From IMG/VR virus record IMGVR_UViG_2872185964_000011: 40,519 nucleotides of DNA, one strand, 5' to 3'. A program made the translations under genes and the position numbers. Below, piece after piece: positions 3,525-40,519 of this stretch. Position 1 is the first letter of the stretch; the number at the start of each line of letters is the position of its first letter. This DNA comes from a virus (taxonomy: Duplodnaviria; Heunggongvirae; Uroviricota; Caudoviricetes). A model generated the notes under the pieces. It worked only from the letters and a program-made list of their open reading frames with translations, had not been told where the DNA came from and searched no databases.

Positions 3525-4322
3525 ATGCCCCTGGCGAAAATATTTACAAAGCAAGTTTCTTTATTAACTATGTTTTCAGCGTTAGCTTATGCGATGGCAT
3601 ATTCTTTTCAGAAAGGTGTTGCATCGTATTATGGCTATCCAGACCTTTTTATTAAAATAGACTTAAATACGCTATTGTATTCGGCTGTGTGGCTTTTGTT
3701 TTTTAGTTTTTTATTTCTCGGCGCCTTATATGCGGCGTTGATGTTTGATTTGAAAGGGAAATATTATGTTCCATTTATTGTATTTATAGTTGTTATGCTA
3801 ATGGCTAATATTTGTATAATAGGATTTCATTGGCCTTTTGGTTATTTCTCCGAAACTTCTGTGATGAGTGTTCAGGATATTTTATTATTTGCTATGCTTT
3901 TGTTGAATTATCACAATGTGGTGTCCATGCCAATCCATAGTAAGAGACACGAACATCATATGGAGAGCATTAGAAAATTTGGGAGGCTTGCAGAGTATAA
4001 GAACGTATTTTATTATATCGATTTAAAAATCCTAAAGTCAGCTTTTCCTTTAGGGGTGATAACGTTGTTGATATTGAGCTATACATTCGGGAAGGTTACT
4101 GCATTTAAAAATAACGAATATTATATGGTAGATGGTAGTAATACTAAAGTGTTGCTCAATTCATTTGGTAGTGGTTTTGTTGTTGGTGATTGTGAGTCAA
4201 ATAGCGCAAAATTTGAATTTGTTAATGATTTAAAAGGGATGAGATTCACAATCATGTCCTCTAAAAAGGAAATAGCTAAATTAAAAGAGTGTTTCGAAAT
4301 ACGTGTTAAAAATACGGATTAA
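3525..4322 (+). CDS. hypothetical multi-pass membrane protein; AT-rich accessory gene antisense to the replication operon
   Basis: 265-aa ORF with strong RBS; about four hydrophobic helices in the N-terminal half, soluble C-terminal ~90 aa; visibly AT-rich compared with flanks; no family recognised. Confidence 0.6.
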   Translation: MPLAKIFTKQVSLLTMFSALAYAMAYSFQKGVASYYGYPDLFIKIDLNTLLYSAVWLLFFSFLFLGALYAALMFDLKGKYYVPFIVFIVVMLMANICIIGFHWPFGYFSETSVMSVQDILLFAMLLLNYHNVVSMPIHSKRHEHHMESIRKFGRLAEYKNVFYYIDLKILKSAFPLGVITLLILSYTFGKVTAFKNNEYYMVDGSNTKVLLNSFGSGFVVGDCESNSAKFEFVNDLKGMRFTIMSSKKEIAKLKECFEIRVKNTD

Positions 4323-4974: not shown

Positions 4975-5736
4975 TTACGAGGAAGCGTTAGCTATTTGAG
5001 CTTGTGTAAATTCGAAACCAGAATTTTGTAACCGTTGCACTAGACGAGGAACTGTTTCACGTACATGGTCGTTGAAATTCAGATACAAAATCCCGTTAGC
5101 ATCAGAAGGCTGTTCTAGGTGCTGTTTCTGAAGGATTGCTACATTGCTGCGCCCTAAGGACGAAAGAAGCATACCCATCTCGAGTACAACGTTCTGTCTT
5201 GCGCGGGGTTGGATTTCTGCTTCACCGGCGCGCTTTGAGTATCCCATATCATCAGGTGTCAAAAGAACAATCCCGAAACGGGTAGCAGTTTGTCCTTGCC
5301 CAATTTCACGTTCAAGCTCTTCAATAATGGTGAGTCCAGTCCCTCCCGTATTCTGCAAAATGAAATGGTCTGGTAATCCAAGTTTATGAAGGATTAGCTC
5401 AAGTTGCTCCTTTGCAGTATGGTCATGGCCGTGAACAATGAATATCTTTTTGGGGAGCTCAGATGGCTGTTCTACGGCTAGTGGTGTTGCCGTGGGCGGC
5501 GTTCCTAAATGGGTCATTATTGCAGTTTCAACATTGGGACGTTCTTGAGGGTTACCTTGAAACTGAATGGTCCGGGTGGTGTAAAGGTTAACAATTACGC
5601 CATTCGTTAAACGATAGCAGTCACAAGTCTCACGCTGTTCGTGGGAAAAATTGGTGAACCCACACTCCCTCAAAAAGTCAGGAAAAGTTTCTCTCGGGTA
5701 TGGATAGGTGATCGGCATTTCAGTTAGTTCCTGCAT
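4975..5736 (-). CDS. TIR-like domain protein: C-terminal TIR-like (predicted nucleotide-binding, NADase-type) domain fused to an N-terminal ~95-aa domain of unknown function
   Basis: C-terminal half KKIFIVHGHDH...GIVLLTPDDMGY...RARQNVVLEMGMLLSSLGRSNVAILQK...PSDANGILYL matches from memory the bacterial TIR-like family consensus including the conserved Glu; own RBS and downstream terminator. Confidence 0.6.
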   Translation of the reverse strand: MQELTEMPITYPYPRETFPDFLRECGFTNFSHEQRETCDCYRLTNGVIVNLYTTRTIQFQGNPQERPNVETAIMTHLGTPPTATPLAVEQPSELPKKIFIVHGHDHTAKEQLELILHKLGLPDHFILQNTGGTGLTIIEELEREIGQGQTATRFGIVLLTPDDMGYSKRAGEAEIQPRARQNVVLEMGMLLSSLGRSNVAILQKQHLEQPSDANGILYLNFNDHVRETVPRLVQRLQNSGFEFTQAQIANASS

Positions 5737-7910: not shown

Positions 7911-8540
7911 ATGCATATGATCCAATACTTGATTGACCATACAGAGCATCTGGAGAAAATAGCTGGATATATTTTTTCATGTTTGATTGTTATGGGAGTC
8001 TGGATAAGAAAGATCATTTTTAATTATAAGTATAAAGAGCCTAAATATGTCAAGAAGTTAATTTTATATTTAGTTAAGTATGAACGTTATCTGGATGAGG
8101 AGGATAAGAGTGCCATAGAAAAAAGAATAAATGATAAAATTATTCGTGATGCGCTGAAATTGCAATCCTCTTATAACCGAAGAGATGTTATTTACATTTG
8201 CAATAGATTAGAAAAAAGACAGTATATAAATCAGTTGATTAAGCTTCAGAATTATATAGAGAAAGATAACGGAGTGTTTTTTATTAATGTTGATTTTTCA
8301 GGTTTTTTATTTATTATTAGTCGTCTGTTTTCCTTTCTGTGTTTTGTGCTGTTTACCCTTTTTTCTATTATCTGCATTATTTCCATAGGGCAAAATGAAG
8401 GCCTTTTAAATTATCTTGTGTATATGGTTATGATAATAGTTTTAGAGACTGTTGGTTTTTGGATGTATGATACTTTCCCGTCTAAGAAAAAGATCTGTGA
8501 ACTAAATAAAGAATTGAGAAAGATTAAGATTCCTGAGTGA
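7911..8540 (+). CDS. hypothetical membrane protein; second AT-rich accessory gene antisense to the replication operon
   Basis: 209-aa ORF; one N-terminal and two C-terminal hydrophobic helices flanking a charged Lys/Glu-rich middle; very AT-rich; no family recognised. Confidence 0.55.
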   Translation: MHMIQYLIDHTEHLEKIAGYIFSCLIVMGVWIRKIIFNYKYKEPKYVKKLILYLVKYERYLDEEDKSAIEKRINDKIIRDALKLQSSYNRRDVIYICNRLEKRQYINQLIKLQNYIEKDNGVFFINVDFSGFLFIISRLFSFLCFVLFTLFSIICIISIGQNEGLLNYLVYMVMIIVLETVGFWMYDTFPSKKKICELNKELRKIKIPE

Positions 8541-18393: not shown

Positions 18394-20016
18394 ATGCCGT
18401 TACCATTCCCCTTCGATTTTAAACATCCTGATTACCAGATGGTTTTTGAATGGCGGATGGAACGCCTACAGCGCATTCGCCAGAATCCTGAAATATTGCC
18501 TGCACTAAAACAGTTTTACCGAACTAATCCGGCTCAGTTCATCATCGACTGGGGCATGACAACGGACCCGCGTAATATTGATTATGGCCTGCCGGTGACC
18601 ATTCCGTTTTTACTCTTCCCTAAGCAGGAGGAGTGGATCCACTGGATTATGGAACGCTGGAGCAATCGGGAGAATGGTATTACCGAAAAATCCCGTGAAA
18701 TGGGGCTCAGTTGGACCGCGATCGGACTGGCCTGCTCGCTTTGTCTCTTCAACAAAGAAATGGTTATCGGTTTCGGCTCCCGTAAAGAGGAATACGTCGA
18801 CAGCACTGGTGACCCGAAAGCATTGTTCTGGAAGGCGCGCAAGTTCGTGGAAACGCTACCTGTAGAGTTTCGCGGTTCGTGGAGCGAGAAGAAGCACGCG
18901 CCATATATGCGTGTTGAGTTTCCTGAAACTGGTGCCGTTATCAAAGGCGAGGCTGGCGATAATATTGGTCGTGGTGACCGTACCACGCTTTATCTGGTTG
19001 ATGAGGCTGCATTCCTTCAGCGTCCTCTGCTGATTGATGCGGCGTTGTCACAAACGACGCGTTGCCGTATCGACCTGAGTTCAGTTAACGGCATGGCTAA
19101 CCCGTTCGCTCAGAAGCGTCATGGCGGGAAGATACCGGTATTCACATTCCACTGGCGGGATGATCCTCGCAAGGATGAAGAGTGGTATCGCAGGGAATGC
19201 GAGAAAATCGATAATCCGGTGGTGGTGGCACAGGAACTTGATCTGAACTACAGCGCATCAGCGGAAGGCGTCCTGATTCCATCCGAATGGGTACAGGCTG
19301 CCGTTGATGCACATATCAAACTGGGTATCCAGCCAACAGGCAAACGACTTGGCGCGATGGATGTCGCCGACGAAGGCAGGGACAAAAATGCCTTTTCCAC
19401 CCGTCATGGCTTCCTCCTGGAAAATGTGCGGGAATGGTCCGGTGTGGGCAGCGACATTTATCAGTCAGTTGAGAAGGTTTTCGGCTTTTGCGAACAGGAC
19501 AACCTCGACGAGTTTCGCTTTGACGAGGACGGGCTGGGCGCTGGCGTTCGCGGCGATGCGCGCGCTATCAACGAACTGCGTAACGCTGCGCGTCGACCGT
19601 CAATACTCGCCACACCGTTTCGAGGTAGTGGCGCGGTATTTGATCCGGATGATGAAGCTGTTCGCGGGGACAACGGGCAAGCCGCACGTCTGAACAAGGA
19701 CTTCTTCGCTAACGCCAAAGCCCAGAGCTGGTGGCGGTTACGTAAACTTTTTCAGAATACCTGGCGCGCCGTGGTTGAAGGTATGGCTTACAACCCGGAC
19801 GAGATCATCTCAATCAGCAGTAGCATGGCACTCAAAGATAAACTCATCATCGAGCTTTCGCAGCCGACCTATTCCATTAATGGTGTGGGAAAAATCGTTA
19901 TTGATAAACAGCCTGATGGAACCCGGTCGCCAAATCTTGCCGACTCGGTGATGATCAACTATGCCCCAATGAATTCAGCCCTGAACATCTGGGAGTTGCT
20001 AGGGAGACAGGCCTGA
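18394..20016 (+). CDS. terminase large subunit
   Basis: 540 aa directly after the small subunit; Walker B-like [11 protein letters not shown] and acidic nuclease-domain residues (GAMDVADEG); Walker A is deviant. Confidence 0.7.
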
Positions 20017-21380
20017 TGGCACGAAACAAACAAGCCCTGCGGCGAACTGCGCAGGCCACAGCTGATGGTTATGAGAATTTTATCGCCCGCGTAGGGATGC
20101 AGACACCTAACCAGCACTCAGCATCCACCTACCGGGCTAATTTCACCAGTCGTAACCGCATGCTGGTGGAATGGTCCTATCGTTCATCCTGGATCATCGG
20201 CGAAGCAGTCGATGCTATCCCGGATGATATGACCCGCAAAGGCATTCGCATCACTTCGGAAATTGATGCAAAAGATCGTGGCATTCTCGAATCACAACTG
20301 GATGAGTTGCAAATCTGGGATGCGCTGAATGACGTGCTGAAATGGTCGCGCCTCTACGGCGGCGCGGTGGGTTTCATCATGATTGAGGGGCAGGCACCAA
20401 TGACCCCGCTGCGACCCGAAACCATTGGTAAGGGCAAGTTTAAGGGGATTCTCCCGCTCGACCGCTGGATGATTGACCCGGTACTGACCCGCCGCATTAA
20501 AGATATGGGGCCGGACCTGGGTAAACCTGAGTTTTACGATGTGGTGACCACAGCAACGGGAATTCCTGCCTGGCGCATTCATCACAGTCGCCTGATTCGC
20601 TTTGATGGCGTCACGCTGCCATTTCAGCAGAAGATGACCGAGAACGAATGGGGAATGTCGGTTGTAGAGCGTATCTGGGATCGTCTTACCGCGTTCGACA
20701 GCGCTACTGTCGGTGCGGCGCAGCTGGTCTACAAGGCGCATCTGCGTACCTACAGCGTGGAGAAGCTACGTGAGCTTATCGCACTTGGTGGTCCTGCGTA
20801 TGAAGCGTTGCTGAAGAATATCGACCTGATTCGACAGTTCCAGAGCAATGAAGGCATGACGCTCATGGACTCGCGGGATAAGTTTGAAACCCATCAGTAC
20901 AGCTTCAGTGGTCTGGATGACATCCTTTCACAGTTTGCAGAACAGATTAGTGGCGCTGTTGGTATCCCACTGGTGCGGTTGTTCGGACAGTCCCCGAAGG
21001 GATTTTCTACCGGCGATGCAGACCTTGCCAACTATTACGACCGGGTAAGCTCGTTGCAGGAGAGGCGTTTACGTCTTCCGGTGCGGCGGATACTGGACAT
21101 CATGCATCGTTCGGAACTTGGCAAGCCGCTCCCGGATGATTTCACGTTTGAGTTTAACCCGCTCTGGCAAATGTCTGATGTCGATCGTTCAACGGTGGCG
21201 TTAAATACCACCAACGCAATCAGTACAGCGCTGGGTGATGGTCTGATGACACTGAAAGCCGCTATGACTGATTTGCGCGAAAATTCTGACGTAACCGGCA
21301 TCGGGGCATCCATTACCGACGAGGACATCGAGAATGCCGAAGATGAAGCGCCGCCCGGCATCGGCGAACCTGATGACTAA
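20016..21380 (+). CDS. portal protein
   Basis: 454 aa after large terminase and before head-morphogenesis gene; acidic C-terminus; assigned by position and size. Confidence 0.65.
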   Translation: MARNKQALRRTAQATADGYENFIARVGMQTPNQHSASTYRANFTSRNRMLVEWSYRSSWIIGEAVDAIPDDMTRKGIRITSEIDAKDRGILESQLDELQIWDALNDVLKWSRLYGGAVGFIMIEGQAPMTPLRPETIGKGKFKGILPLDRWMIDPVLTRRIKDMGPDLGKPEFYDVVTTATGIPAWRIHHSRLIRFDGVTLPFQQKMTENEWGMSVVERIWDRLTAFDSATVGAAQLVYKAHLRTYSVEKLRELIALGGPAYEALLKNIDLIRQFQSNEGMTLMDSRDKFETHQYSFSGLDDILSQFAEQISGAVGIPLVRLFGQSPKGFSTGDADLANYYDRVSSLQERRLRLPVRRILDIMHRSELGKPLPDDFTFEFNPLWQMSDVDRSTVALNTTNAISTALGDGLMTLKAAMTDLRENSDVTGIGASITDEDIENAEDEAPPGIGEPDD

Positions 21381-36208: not shown

Positions 36209-36885
36209 GCAAATACACCGAACTAATCACGAACTACCACGCCACCAAACCTAAATTTCTTGCACATGTTGATCTGATGACCCGGCCGCTTATTGATGTT
36301 GCGGCTGCCACCAGCGGGCTGATTACTGCATTTGATATTGACTCTGCGGTTGGTGTGCAACTTGACATTCTGGGATTGTGGATCGGACGTAGCCGTGTTG
36401 TCAGCCAGCCTATTTCAGGTGTCTATTTCAGCTTGGATACCGACGGGCTTGGATATGATCAGGGGGTATGGCAGGGACCATACGATCCTGATTCCGGATA
36501 CATGTACCTCAGCGATGAAACTTATCGTGTCATTCTTAAAGCGAAGATTGCGATTAATAACTGGGATGGACGGAATGATTCGCTTCCGGCAATTCTTGAC
36601 GCTGCAACAGCAGGATCCGGGCTGCGAATGCAGATAGTCGATAACCAGGACATGACGATATCGGTCTGGGTCTTTCCTGATACTGATATTTCAGATGTAT
36701 CGCGTGAGTTAATTGCGGCAATTAAACAGGGGTATCTCACAGTTAAAGCCGCCGGGGTATGGGCGGGTGGCATTGAAACACCTTCGGTGGAAACTCCATC
36801 GGAAGGTTCAAAATTTTTTGGTTTTGATATGGATAACGAATTTATCAGTGGTTTTGATGTAGGGGCATGGGGAGTATTACTCTGA
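36205..36885 (+). CDS. baseplate/tail protein (gpI / Mu gp48-like candidate)
   Basis: 226-aa ORF; stop overlaps the tail fibre start. Confidence 0.5.
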
Positions 36886-37981
36886 TGGCAAAAAATGACT
36901 TTAAAACATTCGCAACGGGTAAAAATGCCAATGTTATGTCGCAGGAGGAATGGGAAGCGTTGCCTGCGCTTTTATCCGGATTTACAGCAGGGAAAGCATC
37001 CAGTGCGCAAGTCAATAAGGTTATTCGGCAGGCCAGCTTTATTGCATCTGCAATAGCACAATATACAGCAAATGAAAGTGGACTGGATGTACAGGACGAT
37101 GGCGATCAGGCCGGCTTTATCGCAAAAATGTCGTCTGCATTAGATAAGAACTATCAGAGAATTAATGCCATACTTACCGCACTTGCTAATCTTTCAGCAT
37201 CCGAAAACAAATTACCGTATTTTACCAATCAAGATACCGCTAATTTGGCTGACCTGACACAGGTTGGGCGAGATATTTTGGCAAAAAGCTCTGTTGCTGA
37301 TGTCCTTAAATATCTTGGTTTGGAAAATAATTCGACCTTTCCTGTAGGTGCCCCGATCCCGTGGCCATCAGATACAGTTCCATCTGGTTATGCTCTGATG
37401 CAGGGACAGACTTTTGACAAGTCTGCATACCCGAAACTTGCAGCCGCTTATCCGTCAGGCGTGATCCCTGATATGCGTGGCTGGACAATCAAAGGTAAGC
37501 CTGCAAGTGGACGTGATGTTCTTAGCCAGGAACAGGACGGCATTAAATCGCACACCCACAGCGCCAGTGCTTCAAATACAGATTTAGGGACAAAAAACAC
37601 ATCATCGTTTGATTATGGAACTAAATCTACGAATAACACTGGTGCGCATACCCATAGCGTTAGCGGAACAGCAGCTTCAGCAGGTGCACATACGCATCCG
37701 ATATCTCAGGGGATAATGCTAACGTTAGCTCCGGTAGAGTAGCTTCGTCGAACTCTGCTCAAACTCACTTAGGTGCAACGAATTCTGCTGGCGCGCATAC
37801 CCACTCAGTATCAGGTACTGCAGCAAGTGCTGGGGCGCATACACATACTGTCGGTATTGGTGCTCATACGCACTCCGTTGCGATTGGCTCACATGGACAC
37901 ACCATCACCGTTAACGCTGCTGGTAACGCGGAAAACACCGTCAAAAACATCGCATTTAACTATATTGTGAGGCTTGCATAA
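36885..37981 (+). CDS. tail fibre protein, frame broken at G-run 37709-37712
   Basis: repeated GAHTHS motifs; -1 frame continues through more of them to ...[11 protein letters not shown], a tail-fibre C-terminus I recognise. Confidence 0.75.
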
Positions 37982-38553
37982 TGGCATTCAGAATGAGTGA
38001 ACAATCACGAACCATCAAAATTTATAATCTGCTGGCCGGAACTAATGAATTTATTGGTGAGGGTGACGCATATATTCCACCTCATACAGGTCTGCCAGCA
38101 AACAGTACCGATATTGCACCGCCAGATATTCCTGCAGGCTTTGTGGCTGTTTTCAACAGTGATGAGGCATCGTGGCATCTCGTTGAAGACCATCGGGGTA
38201 AAACCGTCTATGACGTGGCTTCCGGCGACGCGTTATTTATTTCTGAACTTGGCCCATTACCGGAAAATGTCACCTGGTTGTCGCCGGATGGGGAGTTTCA
38301 GAAGTGGAACGGCACAGCTTGGGTGAAAGATGCAGAAGCAGAAAAACTCTTCCGGATCCGGGAGGCGGAAGAGAAAAAGACAAGATTAATCCAGGAAGCG
38401 ACTGATAACATAACAATTCTGCAGGATGCTGTTAATTTTGAAATGGCAACTGATGAGGAAATCTCGATGCTATCTTCCTGGAAAAAATACCGGGTATTAG
38501 TGAGTCGGATTGATATAAATACAGCCCCGGATATCGTATGGCCAGAGCTGTGA
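37981..38553 (+). CDS. tail fibre assembly protein
   Basis: 190 aa directly after the fibre gene; C-terminal ...[10 protein letters not shown] typical of this family. Confidence 0.7.
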
Positions 38554-38563
38554 TTAAACGGAA

Positions 38564-39109
38564 TTATGTGTGAGATGAGTTATAAATAATTTCAGAGTGA
38601 AATTTAGTAATGAATGTGGAGTCATCAGGAATGTCATGCAGTACCAATGCATGAGCTCCTATTTTTACATTATTCCCTATATGCACTTTGCCACCAAGGA
38701 TGGTGGCGTTACAGCCAATGGTTACATTATTTCCTATGACAATATCCATATCATTAAATTCACCGCGAAGTCCAATAGTTACCCCTGGCTTAATTGAACA
38801 ATTTTCACCTATTGTAACTTTGTGACCGATAACAACGCCATTGAGATAAGATATGTCGAACCCTTTACCAATATTTACAGTTAAGGGAACGGTTACATTG
38901 TATTTATCAAGAATGAAGCGTTCTATTTTTCCTGCAATCTTTCGCCGGTATCCTCCTTTATCAAAAAGATATTTTGCTACGCGCCACCAAAATAAATAAC
39001 GTAATCTTCTGTGTTTTATTGCGCGAACAATTGCTTTTCGCCAGGAGAAAGGGCGTTTATAACCTATTACTTCATAGTGTATACAGTTTTTAAGTTCACT
39101 AATATTCAT
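38564..39109 (-). CDS. hexapeptide-repeat acetyltransferase (serine-acetyltransferase-like left-handed beta-helix fold); cargo gene
   Basis: 181 aa with tandem hexapeptide repeats (VIGHKVTIGENCSIKPGVTIG...IGNNVTIGCNATILGGKVHIGNNVKIGAHALVL); AT-rich; antisense to tail genes. Confidence 0.7.
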   Translation of the reverse strand: MNISELKNCIHYEVIGYKRPFSWRKAIVRAIKHRRLRYLFWWRVAKYLFDKGGYRRKIAGKIERFILDKYNVTVPLTVNIGKGFDISYLNGVVIGHKVTIGENCSIKPGVTIGLRGEFNDMDIVIGNNVTIGCNATILGGKVHIGNNVKIGAHALVLHDIPDDSTFITKFHSEIIYNSSHT

Positions 39110-39190
39110 ATGTCTATTATTCAGTAAAGATAATTCTGTAACTTATTATTATATTAAGTTTAATGAGATTTTTCTACAGTTTACTGTCTT

Positions 39191-39322
39191 ACTCTCACGC
39201 CGGAGCAATGGGCGCAGGCTGGACGACAAATTGCATCAGGAGTTTCTCGCCAGAAAATGGCGATCATCTATGATGTTGGCGTATCGACTTTGTATAAGAA
39301 GTTTCCGGTCGGAGATGAATGA
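39191..39322 (+). pseudogene. 3'-terminal remnant of a Gin/Pin/Hin-family DNA invertase gene (HTH domain only)
   Basis: own translation TLTPEQWAQAGRQIASGVSRQKMAIIYDVGVSTLYKKFPVGDE resembles the Gin/Hin C-terminus; upstream is AT-rich with no catalytic domain. Confidence 0.6.
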
Positions 39323-39403
39323 AACCGTGGCACGTCGTATGCAAGAACGTGCCACGGCTGGCTGATAAGCTTGTAAAAATCTTGAACAGGGAGTGGAGCA
39401 TTT

Positions 39404-40051
39404 CTATGAAGCTAATTTGTTTAATTTCATTTGTAGCGACTTTACTTCTTGGTCGATAATGTTGAATCCCTTATTGACTGCATCTCTTAGTTCTGCATCA
39501 ATATTTTTTATCCCTTGAGCATAATCTACCATTACATCTATTTTTTCATCATGTAATCTCTTATACATGGTTTTATCTTTGTTATTGTCAGCCATACCAA
39601 TAAGTATTTTTTCATAATCCTCAATGAGTTTGTTGTTTCCTTTAAATGATTGTATTAATGACCGTGAATATGTGTAGATATTAATTATTGAGTCTCTGGC
39701 AGAATCATTTAGTTTTGCAATGACATTCGCATTTTGCTCATAGAATGTGAAATTATCATCCCCTACAGGGAAAGTGAGAATTAATATCTGTCCGGGTTTG
39801 ATATTATCAATGTGTGTTTTCATCCTTTTATTATATAAATTGATTAGGGTGAAAACTTCTCCCTTAACACCTTTTAATACTGAAAGTTGCAATTCAAGGG
39901 ATTCTCTTTCTGTCTCTACTTTAGACAGCTTAGCTTGTTGGGTAACTCCTTTTAGGGTAAACCATCCGCCAATAAGAGTACCAACTAGAGCTGTGAGGGA
40001 GGAGGATAACCATCCAGGAATGCTATTTAAAAAATTACTAAATTCACTCAT
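39404..40051 (-). CDS. hypothetical membrane-anchored protein; cargo gene at the right end
   Basis: 215 aa; N-terminal hydrophobic helix (LSSSLTALVGTLIGGWFTL), then helical and globular segments; AT-rich; no family recognised. Confidence 0.55.
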   Translation of the reverse strand: MSEFSNFLNSIPGWLSSSLTALVGTLIGGWFTLKGVTQQAKLSKVETERESLELQLSVLKGVKGEVFTLINLYNKRMKTHIDNIKPGQILILTFPVGDDNFTFYEQNANVIAKLNDSARDSIINIYTYSRSLIQSFKGNNKLIEDYEKILIGMADNNKDKTMYKRLHDEKIDVMVDYAQGIKNIDAELRDAVNKGFNIIDQEVKSLQMKLNKLAS

Positions 40052-40076
40052 TATAAGTACTCGCTAATATTGAACG

Positions 40077-40086
40077 ATATATATAT
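40077..40086. repeat. (AT)5 dinucleotide repeat 26-35 nt upstream of the 39404-40051 gene start
   Basis: atatatatat read directly. Confidence 0.7.
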
Positions 40087-40188
40087 CAAATTATTATAAA
40101 ACTCGTCAGCTACTGGAGAAGGCTACCTGAACTTCGATCTATTCCTGCATCCATATAGTTGATGGTCTTCTGGAGCTCTTCGATTAGG

Positions 40189-40519
40189 GGTGATGCTGCC
40201 AACTTACTGATTTAGTGTATGATGGTGTTTTTGAGGTGCTCCAGTGGCTTCTGTTTCTATCAGCTGTCCCTCCTGTTCAGCTACTGACGGGGTGGTGCGT
40301 AACGGCAAAAGCACTGCCGGACATCAGCGCTATCTCTGCTCTCACTGCCGTAAAACATGGCAACTGCAGTTCACTTACACCGCTTCTCAACCCGGTACGC
40401 ACCAGAAAATTATTGATATGGCCATGAATGGCGTTGGATGCCGGGCAACTGCACGCATTATGGGCGTTGGCCTCAACACGGTTTTACGTCACTTAAAAAA
40501 CTCAGGCCGCAGTCGGTAA
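40189..40519 (+). mobile_element. IS1 insertion sequence, left end and insA (partial; continues beyond window)
   Basis: starts GGTGATGCTGCCAACTTACTGATTTAGTGTATGATGGTG, the IS1 terminal inverted repeat as I recall it. Confidence 0.9.
40244..40519 (+). CDS. insA: IS1 InsA protein
   Basis: 91-aa product [43 protein letters not shown]... matches InsA. Confidence 0.9.

Follow-up and report, generated by a model that had tools for sequence, protein, structure and literature searches.

Seroconverting enzymes of the acyltransferase-3 type, including those of Sf6 (Oac), phiV10, and D3, are carried by prophages as cargo that modifies the O-antigen of the host and blocks superinfection. Receptor-blocking genes in several phages likewise adjoin receptor-binding genes, as illustrated by llp-oad of T5, cor of phi80, and Z/fun of P2. 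For Sf6, the role of Oac as a seroconverting O-acetyltransferase carried as prophage cargo has been described (PMC3630932). A surface polysaccharide is also altered by NeuO, the K1-capsule O-acetyltransferase of prophage CUS-3, which is a soluble protein of the hexapeptide-repeat class and is likewise encoded by a phage. A further relevant paradigm is provided by the invertible segments of the Gin/Cin/Pin type (G of Mu, C of P1, and P of e14), and it is in a module of this type that the gene considered here is found.

The window, that is, the whole 40,519-nt stretch of viral DNA that was analyzed (IMG/VR record IMGVR_UViG_2872185964_000011), is a prophage of Escherichia coli, about 40 kb long and integrated at a site flanked by yfhL and yfhH. 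Its sequence agrees with that of NZ_CP116169.1 at 99.9% identity, and the 18 gap openings that nonetheless separate the two over 40 kb may be homopolymer sequencing errors in one of the assemblies, so that calls of single frameshifts in either must be treated with caution. The prophage encodes an integrase, a replication module with a DNA polymerase and VapE, lysis genes, and the head, tail, and baseplate genes of a myovirus. Given the integrase, DNA polymerase, and VapE, the prophage as a whole is not Mu-like, and the Mu/P1/e14 type extends to its fibre/invertase module only. In the reference genome, yfhH follows the right end of the prophage, where the following features are found.

36867 to 37981, plus strand: tail-fibre gene, with a Collar domain and fibre repeats
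37981 to 38553, plus strand: tail-fibre assembly (chaperone) gene tfa, from the annotation and a Caudo_TAP match (E=4.5e-38)
38564 to 39109, minus strand: acetyltransferase-like gene of PHROG 2154, an open reading frame with a Hexapep match, named "serine acetyltransferase" by PGAP
39148 to 39176, minus strand: putative sigma-70-like promoter TAGAAA-17-TATAAT, from a pattern match (10/12) and conservation
39194 to 39322, plus strand: remnant of a Pin/Gin/Cin-family DNA invertase, C-terminal HTH only (about the last 43 of 184 residues)
39404 to 40051, minus strand: low-GC open reading frame of 215 aa, with no family match
40190 to 40519, plus strand: left end of IS1 with insA, at the border between prophage and yfhH

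The acetyltransferase-like gene had been described in a first-pass annotation, made from the sequence alone, as an AT-rich, antisense hexapeptide-repeat gene directly after the tail fibre genes, where Mu-like phages carry alternative inverted fibre genes. Most of this description holds. The reading frame, with the boundaries originally given, encodes 181 aa from an ATG start; its GC content of 35.7% compares with 49.4% in the window as a whole and 45.9% in the neighboring tfa, with which it is convergent across an interval of only 11 bp, and it is antisense to the late operon. The slot of the alternative fibre genes is likewise borne out by the layout of a sister prophage at the same yfhH site, described below; a Mu-like character of the prophage overall is not.

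Other parts of the prophage also bear description. In the tail-fibre gene the frame shifts near 37715, at a point flanked by two copies of a repeat, and PGAP calls the gene a pseudogene in two independent genomes, one of them the reference genome; the shift could be genuine or could be the scar of recombination between the His-rich repeats. The portal (DUF1073) reading frame at 20016-21380 (plus strand) ends about 100 nt short of the span that PGAP, reporting an internal stop, marks in the reference as a pseudogene. Taken with the fibre frameshift, this early end of the portal frame suggests a defective prophage. At the far right, the 215-aa reading frame has a GC content of 33% and encodes a hydrophobic segment at the N terminus and then a long helical stretch. 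In about 700 E. coli genomes it is the gene after pin where the prophage ends, and searches of Pfam, NCBIfam, PHROGs, and PADLOC returned no family for it, apart from one noise-level PADLOC match. The IS1/insA element beyond it interrupts a small hypothetical gene, an insertion missing from NZ_CP116169.1, and an Rfam search of 38300-40519 gave no match. In the early region, a 253-aa TIR-domain protein encoded at 4975-5736 (minus strand) matches the PADLOC candidate PDC-S35 (E=6.8e-109) and the Pfam family CAP12-PCTIR_TIR, from which it is probably a prophage-borne anti-phage gene. Two further reading frames of that region, at 3525-4322 (265 aa) and 7911-8540 (209 aa), both on the plus strand, lie within low-GC pockets (28-38%); neither has a Pfam or PADLOC match, and they may be additional morons.

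How the acetyltransferase-like gene came to occupy its position can be read from the sister prophage at the same yfhH site in strain Ecol_542 (L168). There the invertible host-range switch is intact and of the classical kind: the right end runs through fibre and tfa (plus strand), tfa' and fibre-tip' (minus strand), pinE (plus strand), the same 215-aa gene, and yfhH, with crossover sites of the Gin/Pin type at 3662-3679 and 5496-5513. Homology between it and the window extends up to position 37045, covering the first 60 or so codons of the fibre gene, and begins again at 39194, with the last 43 or so codons of pin. Between 37045 and 39194 the window carries another fibre body and tip, another tfa, and the acetyltransferase-like gene instead. 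The fibre-to-pin interval of the window contains no AAACCNNGGTTT-type crossover site, the Pin remnant has no catalytic domain, and the single fibre cassette has no alternative, so that an active invertible switch in the window can be rejected; lacking crossover site and invertase catalytic domain, the switch is frozen. Comparison of the two sequences indicates that the acetyltransferase-like gene took the place of the alternative fibre cassette and of most of the invertase in a Pin-type switch. A third prophage, from strain 93_0495 (L169), agrees with the window in layout and in the break-point within pin but carries another allele of the gene, which is frameshifted. In the P1-like phage-plasmid JL22 (L005, 3327-8790), a homologue named sacF lies between the 602-bp inverted repeats of the C segment and beside an intact cin, and thus inside a segment that should be actively invertible. 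From this arrangement, sacF would be expected to flip together with the alternative fibre cassettes.

The gene also has the features of an independent cargo unit. A promoter-like element, running from 39176 to 39148 on the minus strand, lies about 40 nt 5' of the start codon, and its -35 and -10 hexamers are kept in the alleles of about 90% identity, with unrelated DNA upstream of the -35 hexamer. As the sequence common to the alleles runs from the start codon to just beyond this sigma-70-like element and is unrelated farther out, the unit of transfer appears to be promoter plus reading frame. The promoter scan as a whole was not enriched (12 found vs 8.1 expected), and only its top match, backed by conservation, is used here as the putative promoter of the gene. 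A terminator-like match at 38634-38654 (plus strand) was at chance level for the region (1 found vs 1.1 expected) and was set aside. Phase variation of the kind known from NeuO was considered and rejected, as Tandem Repeats Finder detected no tandem or heptanucleotide repeat tract in 38400-39400, in agreement with the first-pass annotation, which had seen no such tract 5' of the gene. The gene is missing from the sister prophage of strain Ecol_542 at the same att site. By its composition, its promoter-like element, and its presence or absence between sister prophages, it is best described as a self-contained moron, and it is intact even though the fibre gene is frameshifted and the portal reading frame ends early.

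The encoded protein matches Pfam Hexapep (E=1e-13) and has the hexapeptide repeats of a left-handed β-helix (LbetaH). Its top matches in NCBIfam and the PDB are serine acetyltransferases (SATs) and EpsC, and to that extent the serine-acetyltransferase-like label first given to it was apt. It is read as a soluble and probably trimeric protein with the left-handed β-helix of the SAT fold, and was modelled with AlphaFold as a monomer from 73 sequences. PHROGs places it in phrog_2154, listed there as "unknown function."

That the gene might encode a genuine serine O-acetyltransferase, serving as an auxiliary metabolic gene that raises cysteine synthesis, is the reading suggested by these top sequence and fold matches and by the name used in PGAP and in phage records. 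It is nevertheless scarcely credible once the protein is compared with curated SATs, reaching only about one-third of their cutoffs: 77.6 vs 210.65 for TIGR01172 (cysE), 52.7 vs 397 for NF008349, and 85.4 vs 150 for NF041874 (EpsC). No NCBIfam model gave a score above its cutoff. Alignment to K-12 CysE by BLASTP covers only CysE residues 111-235. The N-terminal domain consists of about 70 aa in four helices, as against about 140 aa in eight helices in SATs, and is thus some 70 residues short; at the other end, the protein stops about 14 residues past the β-helix, with no C-terminal tail for docking to CysK (OASS). The roles of CysE residues Asp92, Asp143, Asp157, His158, Arg192, and His193 have been described (PMC8786284), and all are replaced in the 181-aa protein: the serine-binding residues Asp92, Asp157, Arg192, and His193 correspond to R19, S87, M121, and D122, and the catalytic pair Asp143/His158 to T73/Y88. 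A control is provided by short Firmicute EpsC/CysE SATs from the same homology search, which retain the complete residue set, so that the replacements are real rather than an artefact of alignment. Orthology to a housekeeping SAT with intact cysteine-synthase interaction motifs, the outcome that the first-pass annotation had named as fatal to its own proposal, was looked for and is clearly absent. On sequence grounds, the name given in databases is mistaken, and the protein is no serine acetyltransferase.

The remodelling of the catalytic center is not peculiar to this allele. Homology searching recovers a close-knit family from enterobacteria, with identities of 38-93%, beyond which similarity falls off to generic relatives; within the family, two clades can be told apart. 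At column 88, the position of CysE His158, the clade that includes the window's allele has Tyr in 13/13 protein clusters and 20/20 distinct DNA-derived alleles (the Tyr clade); its sister has His in 84/84 distinct loci-derived sequences (the His clade), and more distant homologues have His in 107/107. Two other columns differ in concert: column 73, the position of CysE Asp143, is Glu or Asp in the His clade and Thr, Lys, or Val in the Tyr clade, and column 108 is Gln or His in the former and Pro in the latter. The sacF gene of JL22 falls in the His clade. The window's allele has T73, Y88, H96, and P108; WcaB, the colanic-acid O-acetyltransferase of E. coli, and CysE both keep acid and His at the dyad columns. 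In a profile search of 1.84 billion representatives, His was found in 138 of the 150 best matches, and Tyr at column 88 occurred among these 150 only in the same clade and in one unrelated lineage. The conserved active-site His that acts as general base in the LbetaH superfamily is thus missing from the entire Tyr clade.

Judged from its alleles, this clade is not decaying but is under strong purifying selection, with dN/dS of about 0.1 (0.07-0.12 at dS 0.44-0.65 between alleles of the window type and of the 613R2 type). That Tyr88 is invariant while its acid partner drifts among Thr, Lys, and Val is read here as a sign that the former dyad has been lost and Tyr88 serves some purpose of its own, in catalysis or in binding. 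The chief alternative to the reading preferred below, somewhat doubtful but not to be neglected, is that the Tyr clade is a neofunctionalised or non-catalytic LbetaH protein acting by binding or by different chemistry. As a binding protein it may sequester a lipid-linked or nucleotide sugar or acetyl-CoA, or poison a host LbetaH trimer; as an enzyme it could use Tyr as the base or carry out an N-acylation that needs no base. The concerted changes at columns 73, 88, and 108 and their persistence at low dN/dS despite loss of the dyad favor such an explanation, as do the structural neighbors of the protein, which include the N-acetyltransferases QdtC and WlbB, enzymes that work without a catalytic base. 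Against it, the Tyr clade retains every LbetaH and CoA-groove motif found across the family, no partner protein is consistently encoded nearby, and the strict conservation of the Tyr, which does not drift, suggests that the residue functions in the active site and that the site is not dead.

The distribution of the family was surveyed in about 160 fetched loci, with lineages defined as clusters at 90% identity (68, of which 28 are phage-borne). Of the Tyr-clade loci with flanks in this survey, all but one converge on tfa, at distances of -36 to +36 bp, and the exception (L125) abuts a baseplate-J gene; in the His clade, some 40 loci likewise converge on tfa, at 4-50 bp. Convergent adjacency to tfa within 100 bp was counted in at least 17 of the 68 lineages and at least 13 of the 28 phage-borne ones, counts that are lower bounds as the ad-hoc tfa profile probably misses divergent assembly proteins; adjacency by chance was estimated by the authors at about 4% for a 50-gene phage. 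Some other lineages directly abut a fibre or baseplate gene, and about half are not beside fibre genes, especially in chromosomes other than those of E. coli. Linkage to tfa is seen again in Escherichia phage 613R2, in Hafnia phage yong2, in Citrobacter phiNP, where hicAB adjoins the homologue, and in two plasmids, one a P1-like IncY plasmid and the other a phage-plasmid of 47 kb. The homologue of P2-like ESSI2 phages is placed after the integrase instead. Acetyltransferase and tfa alleles co-diverge (Spearman 0.55), with exceptions in JL22 and L148, where tfa is 80-82% identical to that of the window and the acetyltransferase only 37-40%, so that the slot is conserved and its occupant exchangeable.

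DNA-level relatives of the gene are present in 315 of 5426 complete E. coli genomes (about 6%), with 58 matches on plasmids; the carriers span many serotypes, and some of them have the Tyr clade. Not all copies are associated with phages. In E. coli O145:H28 RM12581, a lone Tyr-clade copy (L172, 4956-5507; 183 aa, 75% identical) lies between the core genes rcdA and ybjL, with a GC content of 41% against 51% for its flanks and no mobile-element genes nearby; the band of about 71% DNA identity that includes this copy comprises 71 records. Another Tyr-clade member is found in a non-phage context beside a transposase, and His-clade members also occur in non-phage islands.

This distribution bears on two other explanations. 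If the protein had a phage-structural role in virion assembly, with the tail fibre or the fibre chaperone as the partner that it acetylates or assists, its gene would be expected to be tightly linked to tfa and fibre genes, as it is in many phages, and to co-diverge with tfa in its alleles, as it does. Such a role is very improbable, however, for a gene that is encoded on the strand opposite to the late operon behind its own promoter-like element, is dispensed with by sister prophages, and occurs in the non-phage contexts just described. Its stand-alone chromosomal copies without phage genes and its integrity where the fibre gene is a pseudogene and the portal reading frame ends early point to a role at the level of the host rather than the virion.

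An intracellular acetyltransferase acting on a non-glycan target (a small molecule, an antibiotic-like compound, a nucleotide, or a component of an incoming phage), and hence a defence or fitness gene, is less implausible, if still unlikely. Consistent with it are the variable cargo regions that hold toxin-antitoxin or defence-like genes (hicAB in phiNP, the integrase side of ESSI2), the PDC-S35 TIR gene elsewhere in the same prophage, the swapping of divergent alleles beside near-identical tfa genes in the manner of defence hotspots, and a weak similarity to xenobiotic acetyltransferases. That similarity amounts to about 22-29 bits against the Vat and CatB models, which have cutoffs of 300-475; no PADLOC model matches the gene, and the repeated and specific convergence with tfa would be left unexplained.

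Starting from the established fold, non-SAT active site, position, cassette mobility, and purifying selection, the most likely reading, held tentatively and at somewhat less than an even chance, is that the gene encodes a WcaB-like modifier of envelope sugars that is expressed in the lysogen and rides with tail-fibre cassettes. Expressed from the prophage, the protein would work at the cytoplasmic face, where it would bind acetyl-CoA together with a sugar belonging to the precursor of an envelope glycan (LPS core, O-unit, ECA, or colanic acid) and would modify that sugar. The surface would then be altered as seen by phages whose fibres use the structure, giving an exclusion or conversion phenotype. 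Modification of a receptor sugar would explain why the gene travels with fibre and assembly cassettes. The diverse serotypes of the carriers argue against an O-antigen-specific target, though not against a conserved one.

The role proposed in the first-pass annotation, acetylation of a surface polysaccharide so as to change the phage receptor, fits the WcaB-like architecture, the link to host-range genes, the moron features, and three pairings with glycosyltransferase genes. The first of these pairings is a two-gene island next to yejM, in which a His-clade homologue accompanies a GT8 enzyme with an LPS-core-type C-terminal domain, GT8C (L013, 5872-7693); the second, in a Buttiauxella MAG (L018, 5971-11000) whose mltF-yfhB-yfhH site, the same as here, is occupied by a related prophage, has a His-clade homologue with a GT17 gene at that prophage's end; and the third (L051) again has a GT17 neighbor. 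A search for glycosyltransferases near all family members found them in these 3 of 68 lineages only, all of the His clade, and no general operonic link is claimed on this account. Their rarity and their restriction to the His clade count against the envelope-sugar reading, as does the location of about half of the lineages away from fibre genes. So does the fact that the classical seroconverting acetyltransferases are membrane proteins of another fold. Most directly, the Tyr clade lacks the His and Asp thought to be needed for O-acetylation by enzymes of the SAT and WcaB types, and this loss weakens a simple O-acetyltransferase reading for the window's allele. The first-pass interpretation is accordingly retained for a SAT-like fold that is not a SAT and for cargo in the slot of the alternative fibre genes, and is qualified for the chemistry.

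Two observations are central: the dyad has been replaced in a coordinated way under purifying selection, and an invertible-fibre slot has been occupied repeatedly. They may be brought together in a more speculative proposal. The Tyr clade could work by a catalytic solution undescribed for the superfamily, or it could be a pseudoenzyme whose binding blocks a pathway of envelope glycans; either would make it a phage-borne receptor-masking device riding with the tail-fibre cassettes that set host range. The proposal is possible, but the balance is presently against it.

In the literature, a search for biochemical or phenotypic work on the family returned name-level mentions only. The JL22 paper calls the role of its homologue unknown (PMC9603915), and the paper on the phiNP prophage of C. 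rodentium lists its homologue as a "fitness" gene (PMC6456863). One paper on accessory genes that affect the O-antigen deals with small proteins unrelated to this one. Even so, the family is labelled "serine acetyltransferase" in hundreds of E. coli genomes and in numerous records of phages and phage-plasmids, and publications count it among metabolic fitness genes. Should it modify envelope sugars, it would represent a widespread class of soluble conversion or exclusion genes, so far overlooked, which move with tail-fibre cassettes, and it would matter for serotyping, for phage therapy, and for phage host range; lacking a surface phenotype, it would be one more uncharacterised moron. In either case, the Tyr-for-His clade offers a convenient natural test of whether LbetaH acetyltransferases need the canonical base.

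Comparison with known systems places the protein most closely beside WcaB. Homology and structure searching, the means first suggested for separating sugar O-acetyltransferases from SATs, returned on one side the non-SAT residues and scores given above and on the other a sugar O-acetyltransferase, WcaB, which by sequence is the nearest characterised architecture to the 181-aa protein. Both combine a short helical N terminus with a left-handed β-helix (162 aa in WcaB vs 181 aa here), they are 31% identical over nearly their full length (residues 19-167 of the protein and 6-152 of WcaB), and both lack the serine-binding Arg-His of SATs. WcaB, a cytoplasmic enzyme that works on lipid-linked colanic-acid units, is likewise soluble, and neighboring K-12 enzymes are annotated for O-acetylated Und-PP-linked units. 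The likeness has clear limits. The protein scores 59 bits against the WcaB equivalog models, far below their cutoff of about 195, and so is not a WcaB orthologue; at the dyad columns WcaB has His and Glu where the protein has Tyr and Thr; and WcaB belongs to the wca cluster, whereas the gene described here lies in a prophage, outside any polysaccharide gene cluster.

CysE differs in each of the six active-site residues (D92, D143, D157, H158, R192, and H193), in its longer N-terminal domain, and in its OASS-binding tail. NeuO, also phage-borne and the functional model behind the first-pass annotation, is only a remote match to the protein. The Gin/Cin/Pin segments provide the module in which the gene sits, but in the window the switch is dead. 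The enzymes of Sf6, phiV10, and D3 are integral membrane proteins of an unrelated fold, and Pfam finds no Acyl_transf_3 match in the soluble β-helical protein described here; the biological logic proposed for it is nonetheless alike.
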